DNA from: Escherichia coli
GTDB taxonomy: Bacteria > Pseudomonadota > Gammaproteobacteria > Enterobacterales > Enterobacteriaceae
DNA: 64,000 bases
Reading direction: 5' to 3' (one strand)
NCBI RefSeq assembly: GCF_016026235.1
Contig: NZ_CP065613.1
How positions within the stretch are numbered: position 1 is the stretch's first letter; each line of letters begins with the position of its first letter. Positions 27,033 to 49,417 of the stretch are shown piece after piece. The translations under genes were made by a program, and so were the position numbers. A model generated the notes under the pieces. It was not told the origin of the DNA. It saw only the letters and a program-made list of their open reading frames with translations, and did not search any database.

Positions 27033-27345
27033 GTTGGAGTCATTACCCGGCGTGCGTGCCAGGTACAGTCGTTCGGCTGGAAAAATACGGGGGCTGAGCC
27101 TGCTGGCAACACTGAGCACAATAGTGCGGTGGCTTATTGGCTATCACGCTTAAAATAAAGGGGTAGATCTGAGACAGCAGGCCAACAGAATTAAAACGCG
27201 GCGGGTAATATCGTATCTGACATTAGCGAAGAATATCTTGCGATACTCCTCGCTAATTTTAAAACGAATGGTGCTGATCACCGTTCTTAATCACTTCGCC
27301 AGAACCGACCATAATATGGTGTTGGTTTATTAGCGCTGATTCATG

Positions 27346-27358
27346 GGGATCCCTCAGT
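27346..27358. repeat. solo 13-bp match (GGGGATCCCTCAG) to the terminal repeat of the IS4-family element
   Basis: Exact reverse-complement of the IS left terminus (CTGAGGGATCCCC) with no adjacent IS body. Confidence 0.4.
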
Positions 27359-27380
27359 GCTTTTGCGGTTTTTTATATCT

Positions 27381-28205
27381 TTAAAGCAGTAGCGGTAGGG
27401 TCGCGCTGGCAGTTTGCTGGCTCACATCGCTGTACTTATGATCCAGCGCAATCAGCGATGTGGTGAGTAACTCTACCAACAGCATAACTCCCACCTTGGC
27501 ATTCAGCGCGCCAGCGCTCAAGGGGCCTTCCGGTTTGGCCGCGACCAGTTGAATATCACTCAGCGAAGCTAACGGACTGCGCGGCGTATTACTCAGCGCC
27601 AGTACACGCACACCTTGCTTACGCGCTAGTTTTACGACATGCAGCAGATCGCGCGTGGATCCAGAACTGGAAATCGCCACCACGAACGTGTTTTTACTAA
27701 GTGTTGTGGCGTTCATGGCAGCACGATGCATATCGCTGAACAATTGTGCGGGTTTCCCCAGACGCAGGAGTTTGTAATGTAAATACTCCCCCAGAATAGC
27801 ACTGGCTGCTACGCCATAAATCTGTACTGACTGAGCCTGATGCAGTGCAAGCGTGGCTGCTTCCAGCAAGGTCCTATCGAGTAATTTTGCTGTGTCCTGT
27901 AGTGCTTGCACGGATTCATTGACCACATTGTCAATCTCATCACCGCCGTACTCTACAGACTGTACTTGTCGGAGATCGAGTGCAAGCGCCATTTTGAATT
28001 CGTTATAGCCCTTACACCCCAGCGTTCGGCACAGACGTGTGACGCTAGCCTCGCTGGTGCCGCTTTCACGCGCCAGTTCGGTAATCGTCAGGTAGACAAC
28101 TTTTGCCGGATCGCTAAGTACAAACTCTCCCAGCTTCTGTTGAGTTCGACTATATCCATCAACGCTCTGGCGCAATCTCAGCAGCAGGTTTTCATTTTCT
28201 GGCAT
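27381..28205 (-). CDS. RpiR/MurR-family transcriptional regulator (HTH + SIS domain)
   Basis: 274-aa ORF; N-terminal HTH (LTITELARESGTSEASVTRL) and SIS sugar-phosphate-binding region; divergent from the PTS gene. Confidence 0.8.
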   Translation of the reverse strand: MPENENLLLRLRQSVDGYSRTQQKLGEFVLSDPAKVVYLTITELARESGTSEASVTRLCRTLGCKGYNEFKMALALDLRQVQSVEYGGDEIDNVVNESVQALQDTAKLLDRTLLEAATLALHQAQSVQIYGVAASAILGEYLHYKLLRLGKPAQLFSDMHRAAMNATTLSKNTFVVAISSSGSTRDLLHVVKLARKQGVRVLALSNTPRSPLASLSDIQLVAAKPEGPLSAGALNAKVGVMLLVELLTTSLIALDHKYSDVSQQTASATLPLLL

Positions 28206-28370
28206 GCAAAATCCTTAATGCGTTTCTCTGCCGATAGTGTGGCGGAAAGTAGGGGAGAGATGCCAGTCATTTTAAAAAAGTATGATCGGTGTCTTGGTTT
28301 TTGATGGTAATTTTCATTTTTAAAATTAGTTATGGTAAAAATTTTTATCAATAATCGGGGAGATGAAAAA

Positions 28371-29927
28371 ATGATGCAAATATTTAGCGGCGCTTCGTCA
28401 GGCGCATGGTTTGAAAAAGCGCAGCGGTTCGGCAAATCGTTCATGCTGCCGATTGCGGTATTGCCCGCAGCGGGGTTGTTGTTGGGGATTGGTGGGGCTC
28501 TGTCGAATCCCAATACGTTGACGGCCTACCCATTCTTGAATGTCGACTGGCTGCAGGCAATCTTCACAATCATGACCAGCGCAGGTTCTATTGTGTTTGC
28601 CAACCTGTCGGTACTCTTTGCGGTCGGCGTCGCCGTGGGGCTGGCGAAATCGGATAAAGGCACTGCCGGGCTTGCGGCATTGCTAGCGTTTCTGGTGATG
28701 AATGCTACCATCAACGCCTTATTAACGCTAAATGGAACGTTGGCGCACAAGAACCCCGGTTCAGTTGGCCAGGGGATGACGCTTGGTATTCAGACACTGG
28801 AAACTGGTGTGTTTGGTGGGGTGGTGATTGGTCTCGTCACCTGCACGTTACATAGCCGTTTCAATAAAGTCTCACTACCTCAGTTTCTCGGTTTTTTTAG
28901 TGGTTCTCGTTTTGTACCCATTATCAGCTCCCTTGCCGCGATAGTAGTGGGTGCGGTTATGACGGTGGTGTGGCCGCATTTCCAGAAACTCATTTTTGGA
29001 CTGGGCGGCCTGGTGGATGCGACGGGCTATCTGGGGACGCTGTTGTACGGCTTCATCCTGCGTATGCTTGGTCCACTGGGTTTACACCATATCTTTTATT
29101 TGCCGTTCTGGACGACGGCGCTGGGCGGCAGTGAAATCGTCAACGGCCAGTTGGTTGAAGGTACGCAGCGGATTTTCTTTGCCCAACTTGCCGATCCGAA
29201 TACGCAGCAGTTCTACGCGGGTACCGCTCGCTTTATGTCCGGGCGCTTTATCACCATGATGTTTGGCCTGCTTGGCGCATGTCTGGCAATGTACCATACG
29301 GCAAAGCCGGAGAATAGAAAGGTTGTCGCCGGACTACTTTTGTCGGCAGCCTTGACCTCTTTCCTGACGGGAATCACTGAGCCTGTTGAGTTCTCCTTCC
29401 TGTTTGTCGCGCCCGTATTATACGTAATTCACGCCTTCTTCGATGGTCTGGCGTTTATGGTCGCCCATATTTTACATATCACTATTGGGCAAACCTTTTC
29501 GGGCGGGCTTATCGATTTCCTTCTCTTCGGCGTGTTGCAGGGGGAATCTAAAACAAACTGGATGTATGTCCCCATAGTGGGAATACCGTGGTTCTTCCTT
29601 TACTACTTCACTTTCCGCTATTTGATTAACCGCTTTGGCTGGCTGACGCCGGGTCGTGAGAACGTAACCCTGGTTGAATCCGGCCAGCCTCAGAGTGAAC
29701 GCGCAGCGGCAGTCATTGCCGGGCTGGGAGGCAAAGAGAATCTGGAAGAGGTGGACTGTTGCGCCACGCGCCTGCGCGTGACGGTTAAAGAGAGCAGTAA
29801 GGTAGATGAAGCTGCGCTGAAAGTGACCGGAGCGCGTGGCGTGATTATTCGCGGCAACGGCGTTCAGGTGATTTATGGCCCTCATGTCACCATCATTAAA
29901 AACGAAGTCGAAGAGATTTTATCGTAA
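28371..29927 (+). CDS. PTS glucose-family EIICB component
   Basis: Polytopic EIIC followed by EIIB motif CATRLR; GGGGAG Shine-Dalgarno ahead of ATG at 28371 (ORF track starts at 28332). Confidence 0.8.
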
Positions 29928-30616
29928 TGAAAACTGTACTGGATTCCCTGAAAGGTAAATTAATCGTCTCCTGTCAGGCTCTGGAAAATGAGCCTCTACA
30001 TAGTCCGTTTATTATGTCACGTATGGCGCTGGCGGCAGCACAAGGTGGTGCTGCAGGTATCCGTGCCAACAGCGTGGCGGATATTAGTGCTATCAAAGAG
30101 ATTGTCTCCCTTCCGATGATAGGGATTATCAAACGCGATTACCCTGGCAGTGAGGTGTTTATCACGGCCACTCTCCGGGAAGTGGATGAGTTGATGACCG
30201 TTGAGCCGGAAATTATTGCCCTGGATGCTACTGCGCGCCCGCGCCCTGGTGGTCAGACGCTGGAAGAACTGGTCACGCAGATCCGCGCTCGCTACCCGTC
30301 CGTACTTCTGATGGCAGATATAGCAACAGTAGAAGAGGCGGTGACAGCTGAACGTCTGGGTTTTGACTGTGTGGGCACTACGCTCTACGGCTATACCGCA
30401 GAAACTGCCAGGCATGTGCTGGCGGAAAATGACTGTGGATTCTTACGTGAGGTCCTGGCAGCGGTCAGCGTTCCGGTTGTGGCGGAAGGGAACGTCGATA
30501 CCCCGGAACGTGCCGCACGTTGCCTAACATTAGGCGCTCATACCGTGGTGGTTGGGGGGGCAATCACTCGTCCGCAGCAGATAACGACACGCTTTATCGC
30601 GGCGATCGCCTCGTAA
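29927..30616 (+). CDS. putative N-acetylmannosamine-6-phosphate 2-epimerase (NanE family)
   Basis: 229-aa TIM-barrel-like product; start overlaps the EIICB stop (TAATG). Confidence 0.75.
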
Positions 30617-30643
30617 AGCACCGATGGGGTATGATACTTTGGT

Positions 30644-30673
30644 GGGGATAAGCGATAATTATCGCTTATCCCC
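30644..30673. repeat. perfect 30-bp palindrome GGGGATAAGCGATAATTATCGCTTATCCCC
   Basis: Exact dyad symmetry directly downstream of the NanE-like gene, without a T-run. Confidence 0.6.
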
Positions 30674-31856
30674 ATATTGAGAGTGTTATGCAGTACCCGA
30701 TTAGCTAGATTTTCCAGACCCTGCAAGGTGAGGGGGACTATTGACGCGCTGGACGAACTATTCGCCACGCTGAGCTACGACAAACCGCGGGTGATTGCGC
30801 TGCACTTTAAAATTTCCGAAGGTTATACCCTGTTGATGCTGATTACCACCTTCACCAGCTGCCTGATATTGTGCAAAAACTACGGCTGGTGAAGGTTGGT
30901 TTTACCATTACTGCTGTATATACCCTGCAACTGTTATGGCTGAATGGCGAGCAGTACATCCTTCCGTGTCTTATCAACACCATTATTGGTTGTTTAATTG
31001 CTTCGGCGGTACCGTCTGGTTGTGGTCACAGTGGTATAACGGGTTATTGCGTAAGAATGCCCATGACGCTTCAGAAGCCTATCAGAAAGTGATATTGGCT
31101 CAGCAGCACTTTACAAACGGCGGTACAGTGGCTGGGAGATTATTGCCGATCCGATATGCCGCATTAATGAGAGAGTTCATCATAGGAGAACGCTTTTGCC
31201 AAATAAACCACCTGCCTGTCGTCCAGAATCGCCGCGTAGCTGGTTTTCCCAACCGTTTGCTCAGAAATGAGATCAATAGCCGCAAATCGCGGGCCTGATC
31301 GATGCTTTCAATATAGTTAGCCGCCATTTTTTGCAGCGCCAGGCCCACGTGATACAAGCGTGTATCCGGCATATAGAGCGGATAGTCGTTATCGAGAAAC
31401 TCCTGAGTCAGGCAGTGGGCGGAGCTTCTGGGAATATAGAGGTAATCTGCGAGGCGATCTGATGTATAATCTGTTTAGTAAGAGTAGCGTTTTTAACGCT
31501 ATTACGTCCATGGTGTAGCCTATATGCAGGCAAAGTTCATATCCTTGAGTTTTATGTCAGCCTCTTCCTTTAAGCATCTACTTGGTGTCTATCGTTACTT
31601 CGCACACAAGCATCATGTATATGATGTAACGAAATTAGTTAACGCCCTTATAAGAATCAAGACGTTATCGGGACGCTGTTAACCTGGCTATCCATCCCAA
31701 AACCGGTGCTGACTGGCAATAGCGCGGACAGCAAAATCGGGTGATGACACCGGGGCAGAATGAAAAATATTATCTTGCTGGCGCGTTACATAGCTGAACG
31801 GGCAAAGTCTGCTACGTGGGCAGTAACCGCAAAGTTCAGCCTTATTTATCAGTCTG

Positions 31857-48640: not shown

Positions 48641-49417
48641 ATGCTGATTCTTATTTCACCTGCGAAAACGCTTGATTACCAAAGCCCGTTGACCACCACG
48701 CGCTATACGCTGCCGGAGCTGTTAGACAATTCCCAGCAGTTGATCCATGAAGCGCGGAAACTGACGCCTCCGCAGATTAGCACGCTGATGCGCATCAGCG
48801 ACAAACTGGCGGGTATCAACGCCGCTCGCTTTCATGACTGGCAGCCAGATTTCACGCCGGAGAATGCCCGCCAGGCGATTCTGGCGTTTAAAGGTGATGT
48901 CTACACCGGCTTGCAGGCCGAAACCTTCAGCGAAGACGATTTCGATTTTGCCCAACAGCATTTGCGAATGCTTTCCGGCTTGTATGGCGTACTGCGCCCG
49001 CTCGATTTAATGCAGCCTTATCGTCTGGAAATGGGGATCCGTCTTGAGAATGCCCGAGGGAAAGATCTGTATCAATTCTGGGGAGATATCATCACCAACA
49101 AGCTGAACGAGGCGCTCGCAGCACAAGGCGATAATGTGGTGATTAATCTGGCGTCAGATGAGTATTTTAAATCGGTGAAGCCGAAGAAATTGAATGCCGA
49201 GATTATCAAGCCGGTGTTCCTCGATGAGAAGAACGGCAAATTTAAGATAATCAGCTTCTACGCTAAGAAAGCACGCGGTCTGATGAGTCGTTTTATTATT
49301 GAAAATCGGCTGACCAAACCAGAGCAACTGACAGGTTTTAATAGCGAAGGTTACTTCTTTGATGAAGCTTCCTCCAGCAATGGCGAACTGGTGTTTAAAC
49401 GCTACGAGCAGCGTTAA
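48641..49417 (+). CDS. yaaA: peroxide stress protein YaaA (DUF328)
   Basis: 258-aa ORF in conserved synteny. Confidence 0.9.

Follow-up and report, generated by a model that had tools for sequence, protein, structure and literature searches.

What is a perfect palindrome of some 30 bp doing immediately after the nanE-like gene of an Escherichia coli accessory island? The original prediction, made from a 64,000-nucleotide stretch of DNA (referred to below as the window), described such a palindrome with no T-run following it, and suggested that it could be a protein-binding operator, a recombination site or an atypical terminator. The palindrome, GGGGATAAGCGATAATTATCGCTTATCCCC, was indeed found by exact match at positions 30644-30673, and its exact dyad was seen to reach one base further on each side than first reported, yielding 32 bp with 16-nt arms and a spacer of 0. 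Its 5' edge lies 27 nt past the stop codon of the nanE-like open reading frame. The element is far beyond chance, since the longest arm obtained in 300 first-order Markov simulations was 12 nt and the analytic expectation for arms of at least 15 nt is approximately 6e-5 per 64-kb window; the runner-up among the perfect palindromes of the window has arms of only 9 nt. This second-longest palindrome (18 bp) is located at positions 48783-48800.

The region is part of an accessory island of E. coli (SE15) comprising fic, IS1, a MurR/RpiR regulator, a PTS EIICB transporter, the nanE-like gene, pseudogene debris (YccS/YhfK, IS630 and IS110 fragments) and lacI-PTS genes. Coordinates of the features discussed here are collected in Table 1. 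Close homologues of the NanE-like protein (82-94% identity) were found in Citrobacter, Enterobacter, Lelliottia and Raoultella, and positions 27379-30734 of the window display 89.2% identity to C. portucalensis. The gene order in Citrobacter, Enterobacter and Lelliottia is eno, rpiR, PTS, nanE, an intact queE encoding 223 aa, queD and cysJ, with queE beginning 55-72 nt after nanE. This Citrobacter-like eno-rpiR-PTS-nanE-queE arrangement is the donor context of the cassette and the E. coli island took rpiR, PTS and nanE along with the spacer that separates nanE from queE and with a queE stub. The divergent control region between rpiR and the PTS gene (window positions 28298-28354) has AT-rich inverted repeats of its own, TTTTTGATGGTAATTTT/AAAATTTTTATCAATAA and TGGTAAAAA/TTTTTATCA. 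These repeats, which bear no relation to the palindrome, are candidates for the sites at which the RpiR-family regulator binds.

Table 1. Positions of the cassette genes, the palindrome and the queE remnants in the window
Feature	Position	Strand	Remarks
MurR/RpiR-family regulator gene of the cassette	27381-28205	-	Divergently transcribed
PTS EIICB transporter gene of the cassette	28371-29927	+	RefSeq start
nanE-like gene (N-acetylmannosamine-6-phosphate 2-epimerase, PF04131)	29927-30616	+	Last intact gene of the transferred cassette
Relic sigma-70 promoter-like site of queE	30631-30659	+	-35-like ATGATA 30631-30636, 17-nt spacer, -10 GATAAT 30654-30659
Perfect palindrome	30643-30674		Derived from the quasi-palindrome GGGGATCTGCGATAATTATCGTTTATCCCC, which precedes intact queE in Citrobacter, Enterobacter and Lelliottia
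Relic ribosome-binding site and start codon of queE	30679-30690	+	GAGAG 30679-30683, ATG 30688-30690; from alignment with intact queE loci
queE relic, 5' piece	30688-30734	+	Codons 1-16, TAG at codon 7 (MQYPIS*)
queE relic, 3' piece	30739-30804	+	QueE residues ~167-188, in another frame; blastn to queE of L021, L022 and L026

The cassette was encountered in at least five E. coli contexts, each copy with a queE stub of a different size. These are the fic/IS1 island (300 genomes), a phytase-like/MliC context (approximately 165 genomes), a tRNA-Phe integrase island (locus L036), the native eno-queE site of strain XJ5.2, and the IncF plasmid pF344-1. In XJ5.2 the PTS gene is truncated and QueE (223 aa) is intact; the cassette stands there between eno and queE, in place of ygcG/yqcG. 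At the native E. coli queE, a CRISPR array comes next (positions 6100-6372 of L037 and 2555-2948 of L018). Among 5426 complete E. coli genomes, 471 possess the palindrome region, each of them a single time; the identity is at least 99% in 300 of these and 90-95% in 170. Within the window, too, the palindrome occurs once. When its 18-nt core was compared with the genomes of 100,044 species, 13 isolated matches in unrelated MAGs were obtained and none in Enterobacterales. In phage and plasmid collections, the matches were limited to the homologous cassette (pF344-1 and its relatives) and to native queE, and a scan of positions 30400-31000 against Rfam at a permissive threshold returned only sub-threshold, microRNA-like hairpin noise.

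The original prediction correctly placed the palindrome after the nanE-like gene; what had gone unseen is the broken start of queE downstream of it. With a shorter query, the BLAST match to queE was weak and present in every E. coli genome. A longer query made it significant: positions 30646-30734 match the native queE upstream region and start with 82% identity (E = 1e-14) in 5418 of 5426 E. coli genomes. The start of the gene in the window reads ATG CAG TAC CCG ATT AGC TAG, as compared to MQYPINEMFQTLQGEGYFT in QueE. For the 3' piece of the relic, the translations compared were IDALDELFATLSYDKPRVIAL versus IEALDELLATLSDDKPRIIAL, and approximately 450 bp of queE are deleted between the two pieces. 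As positions 30646-30734 and 30739-30804 both match queE, the palindrome stands between the stop codon of nanE and the relic ribosome-binding site and ATG of queE, 14 nt 5' of this relic Shine-Dalgarno/start codon (ATG at 30688). The internal deletion is implied to have taken place before the fusion to the YccS/YhfK pseudogene fragment, and the RefSeq annotation of 30688-30804 gives the YccS/YhfK fragment only. This fragment also has a 12-nt perfect inverted repeat, at 30848-30859 and 30885-30896, with a 25-nt spacer.

The homologous 30-mer of Citrobacter is an imperfect repeat, with 12 Watson-Crick pairs and one G-T pair out of 15, and this same ancestral sequence survives in E. coli in the tRNA-Phe island copy L036, the queE of which is truncated. 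A metagenome scan for GCGATAAT-N26-30-ATGCAGTACCCGATTA returned 111 stretches which, together with the other loci, amounted to 130 loci and 40 distinct 30-mers. All of the loci in which nanE is adjacent to an intact queE are imperfect and none is perfect: they carry 8-12 Watson-Crick pairs of 15, and those with the right-arm variants TTAACG, TTAGCG or TTAAGC (versus TTATCG), or GATACT in Enterobacter, have 8-11. The conservation in homologous PTS loci that had been proposed as a check of the original prediction is absent as far as perfect symmetry is concerned, and this symmetry is recently derived. Loci in which nanE is not adjacent to queE (Raoultella-type, K-12 and many metagenomic variants) have 1-9 pairs, with a median of 6. 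The limitation of quasi-palindromy to the nanE-queE adjacency hints that the ancestral hairpin may serve the nanE transcript; the loci concerned may also form one clade. Where queE is intact, the left arm stays frozen and that on the right drifts, with a loss of pairs, an argument against strong selection for symmetry as such before the death of queE.

The frozen left arm is consistent with constraint by a promoter. The sequence TCTGCGATAAT was found in 96 of the 96 intact-queE loci sampled, representing approximately 38 distinct upstream variants. It constitutes an extended -10 element (TG-n-GATAAT), located 17 nt after a TTGACA-like hexamer (ATGATA, ATGACC, AAGACC or TTGGTC) and approximately 28 nt before the queE ATG. 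A simple promoter scan called this site in Citrobacter with the TG flag (ATGATA-17 nt-TG-c-GATAAT), where 0.2 sites were expected by chance. The same site was called in the window, but without TG: the TG of the ancestral TGCGATAAT is now AG at 30651-30652 (AGCGATAAT), so that ATGATA-17 nt-GATAAT is kept and the extended -10 is lost. The ancestral left arm therefore resembles known extended -10 (TGnTATAAT) sigma-70 promoters in standing 17 nt past a weak -35-like hexamer and 28 nt before the start codon of queE, and probably served as the promoter of that gene; the window site differs from such promoters in the loss of TG, and the gene downstream of it is dead. The upstream region of K-12 queE did not pass the scan (AATAAT, weak -35), and the promoter assignment is consequently drawn from the conservation and from the Citrobacter call, and not from K-12.

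In the literature consulted we found neither a mapped queE transcription start site nor a description of this strongly conserved extended -10, as seen in Enterobacterales metagenomes (e.g. positions 4705-4733 of L019). Phosphorylated PhoP has been shown to bind within 300 bp upstream of E. coli queE, and no more than that (PMC4974570). Among the loci sampled, AAG in place of CTG was limited to dead-queE loci (17 of 17), an association that represents a single evolutionary origin, as AAG is common to the window type and to the type found at locus L002.

The manner in which the symmetry became perfect is apparent from a comparison of the lineages. The window 30-mer differs from that of L036 by precisely three substitutions (30650 C>A, 30651 T>A and 30665 T>C), and these fall exactly on the three non-Watson-Crick pairs; by our own calculation, the chance that three random substitutions in 30 nt would close those pairs is 8/109,620, or approximately 7e-5. 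Divergence within the palindrome (10%) equals that of the cassette background (approximately 11%), indicating that the rate of substitution was ordinary and that only its direction was unusual. The CT>AA change in the left arm is the one that abolishes the promoter TG. In the chromosomal variant of L002 and L038 (GGGAATAAGCGATAATTATCGCTTATTCC), paired G>A and C>T changes are observed together with the loss of one C, and a perfect 28-bp palindrome remains. In the copy on plasmid pF344-1 (GGGGCTCTGCGATAATTATCTCAGAGCCCC), the right arm has changed from TTTAT to CAGAG, four substitutions in 5 nt which make it the exact mirror of the left-arm CTCTG; in this copy TG is retained, and the ribosome-binding site and ATG are gone via an 11-bp deletion. 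The calculated DNA hairpin energies are -7.5 kcal/mol for the ancestral form, -15.2 for the window, -12.3 for the plasmid, -12.0 for L002 and -4.2 for K-12, and the RNA stem of the 30-mer has shifted from -14.0 kcal/mol in the ancestral form to -21.7 in the window.

Template-switch mutations associated with quasi-palindromes were reportedly described by Ripley in 1982. Work by the Lovett laboratory on a thyA hotspot and on lacZ quasi-palindrome reporters has indicated that quasi-palindromes of E. coli mutate toward more perfect repeats by template switching (PMC7202029), and in a study of how hairpins arise and are maintained, the same process was put forward as an evolutionary source of perfect stems and of multibase 'compensatory' changes (Monttinen and Loytynoja 2022; PMC8794818). 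The present series is similar in several respects: the ancestor is imperfect, the derived changes raise complementarity and mirror the opposite arm, and both a multi-base cluster (the TTTAT>CAGAG change of the plasmid) and an apparently 'compensatory' double change (the L002 lineage) are present. By analogy with the published cases, the clustered mirror change of the plasmid looks like a classic template-switch footprint. The series differs from these cases in being drawn from natural variation among E. coli lineages and not from a reporter assay, and in that the window-type conversion takes two steps in opposite directions. This conversion is not one clean switch and involves at least two events, the left-arm CT>AA being copied from the right arm and the right-arm T>C matching a G of the left arm. 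As L036 is imperfect in spite of its truncated queE, the loss of queE alone does not force perfection.

The explanation that we consider probable is that the palindrome is a vestigial promoter of queE, a quasi-palindrome perfected by template-switch mutation under relaxed constraint, and that it has no dedicated function at present. The element would then represent the decayed -10 to +1 segment of that promoter. On Citrobacter-like chromosomes, where rpiR-PTS-nanE lies between eno and queE, the spacer holds the imperfect repeat GGGGATCTGCGATAA and TTATCGTTTATCCCC, the left arm of which would be the extended -10 of the queE promoter. E. coli gained the cassette with this spacer and with the queE stub, the latter now broken by the stop at codon 7 and by the internal deletion. 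Once queE was dead, the promoter sequence would have been freed of constraint, and substitutions mirrored one arm onto the other, probably by a replication template switch (quasi-palindrome mutagenesis), giving rise to the perfect palindrome. As a by-product it can today fold into a strong stem-loop close to the 3' end of PTS-nanE transcripts. Of this account, the homology, the ancestral state, the direction and non-random placement of the changes and the presence of a single copy are shown by the sequences; promoter activity of the ancestral form, the template-switch mechanism and the absence of a present-day function are inferred. Selection for a stable hairpin would explain the three symmetry-raising events equally well, mutation bias and selection being inseparable when the evidence consists of sequence data alone.

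An additional scenario, possible but in our opinion doubtful, is that selection acted on an RNA stem-loop formed by the palindrome where the PTS-nanE transcript ends, a stronger hairpin having been favoured after the loss of queE. It could block 3'-to-5' exonucleases, or could serve as a weak, U-tract-less terminator shielding the cassette from the junk DNA downstream. The short distance from the nanE stop codon and the strengthening of the RNA stem are in line with such a role, as is the folding of the surrounding 121 nt (z = -5.1); pairing was kept or raised independently in three lineages, and nanE-adjacent loci are better paired than the others. In the first of these capacities the element would resemble the 3' stabiliser palindromes of the REP/BIME type, which likewise form hairpins in the intergenic DNA past an operon's final gene and could stop 3' exonucleases; it differs from them in being single-copy, in the absence of the REP consensus and in having an origin traceable to a promoter region. 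As for termination, the 14-15 bp stem (-21.7 kcal/mol as a 30-mer RNA) is the stable G+C-rich stem-loop of an intrinsic terminator, with G+C-rich outer pairs and a position soon after a stop codon. Unlike Rho-independent terminators, however, it is followed by AUAUUGAGAG, and its long stem has an AT-rich centre. The reported lack of a T-run holds for both strands (ATATTGAGAG on the + strand and ACCAAAGTAT on the - strand), and a terminator scan yielded 0 terminator-like sites on either strand in 30000-31500 and none in the Citrobacter homologue.

Selection for the hairpin is also difficult to reconcile with the drift of the right arm in intact loci, with the imperfect repeat of L036, and with the plasmid cluster of four changes in 5 nt, which resembles one templated event and not stepwise selection. 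In addition, the substitutions in the flanks that extend the hairpin are no better than randomly placed ones. Of the three interpretations originally offered, only that of an atypical terminator or hairpin survives, as a minority reading: a 3' hairpin is conceivable, and the U-tract and the terminator call are both missing.

The whole nanE-queE spacer (30617-30706) can be folded into a long RNA hairpin in which GCAUG of the -35 region pairs with the AUG region of queE, and which would hide the queE ribosome-binding site in read-through transcripts; for Citrobacter, Enterobacter and Lelliottia, the predicted fold has an outer stem of a similar kind. The energy of this extended hairpin is -42.5 kcal/mol in the window type versus -21 to -28 in the other types. 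When the same nine flank substitutions were placed at random, 183 of 1500 trials attained the observed energy, and selection on the extended hairpin is not claimed.

A bolder proposal, which we regard as unlikely, is that the perfected palindrome is a newly evolved functional element, in which a dead promoter has turned, within E. coli lineages, into a U-tract-less hairpin at the transcript end that stabilises or insulates the horizontally acquired ManNAc PTS-nanE operon, with three lineages arriving independently at a closed stem. If true, it would provide a datable natural case of template switching making a functional RNA hairpin from a promoter.

An operator function, in which the palindrome would be bound by a dimeric protein such as the MurR/RpiR regulator of the cassette or a repressor of queE, appears quite improbable. 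Perfect dyad symmetry with half-sites of 15-16 bp, and an overlap with the -10 and +1 of the promoter-like site, are what such an operator would display, and matching changes in the two arms are likewise what one would expect of a site that tracked the specificity of a dimer. The half-site ATAAGCGATAA, however, has no copy with up to two mismatches in the rpiR-PTS divergent control region, the inverted repeats of which are different, and a search with the core of the palindrome gave no related site there either. Across orthologous loci only the left (promoter) arm is conserved and the right arm varies freely, without regard to symmetry; the plasmid and window forms differ at 4 of 15 half-site positions although their RpiR proteins are close homologues, and the gene to be controlled is dead. 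These observations speak against the operator put forward in the original prediction.

The suggestion of a recombination or mobility site, whether the end of a mobile element, the target of an integrase or resolvase, or a cruciform hotspot mobilising the cassette, fares worse still and is highly improbable. The occurrence of the cassette in at least five E. coli genomic contexts, an IncF plasmid among them, and the proximity of the palindrome to its right end would suit such a role. The homology breakpoints, however, are not at the palindrome but 32-60 nt past it, at 30706 (L002 type) or 30733-30734 (Citrobacter and plasmid). At the left, where the junctions of the cassette lie at 27228-27380, no second copy or partner site was found near 27379, and flanking direct repeats are absent. 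The same sequence is resident in the native, non-mobile eno-queE locus of other genera, and the nearby remnants of IS1, IS630 and IS110 are sufficient vehicles. Membership in a dispersed palindromic repeat family (REP/BIME, ERIC or MITE-like), which the palindromic and intergenic nature of the element and its location past a stop codon might have suggested and which the genome-wide copy search proposed with the original prediction was to reveal, is refuted by the copy number of one per genome, by the few isolated matches to the core and by the Rfam scan, and its likelihood is practically nil.

On the reading favoured here, the palindrome adds one more case to an established type of event, namely a horizontally transferred promoter relic the repeat of which was perfected in a template-switch manner. 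For genome annotation, it illustrates that a striking perfect palindrome can be the remnant of a neighbouring gene's promoter, brought in by horizontal transfer, and not an operator or a recombination signal. The lineages described form a natural series, from the imperfect ancestor through two forms perfected in different ways to an additional paired change, as would be expected if quasi-palindromes of wild E. coli undergo template switching when constraint is removed. The conservation of TCTGCGATAAT before queE across Enterobacterales may help the study of the PhoQ/PhoP-dependent control of QueE.
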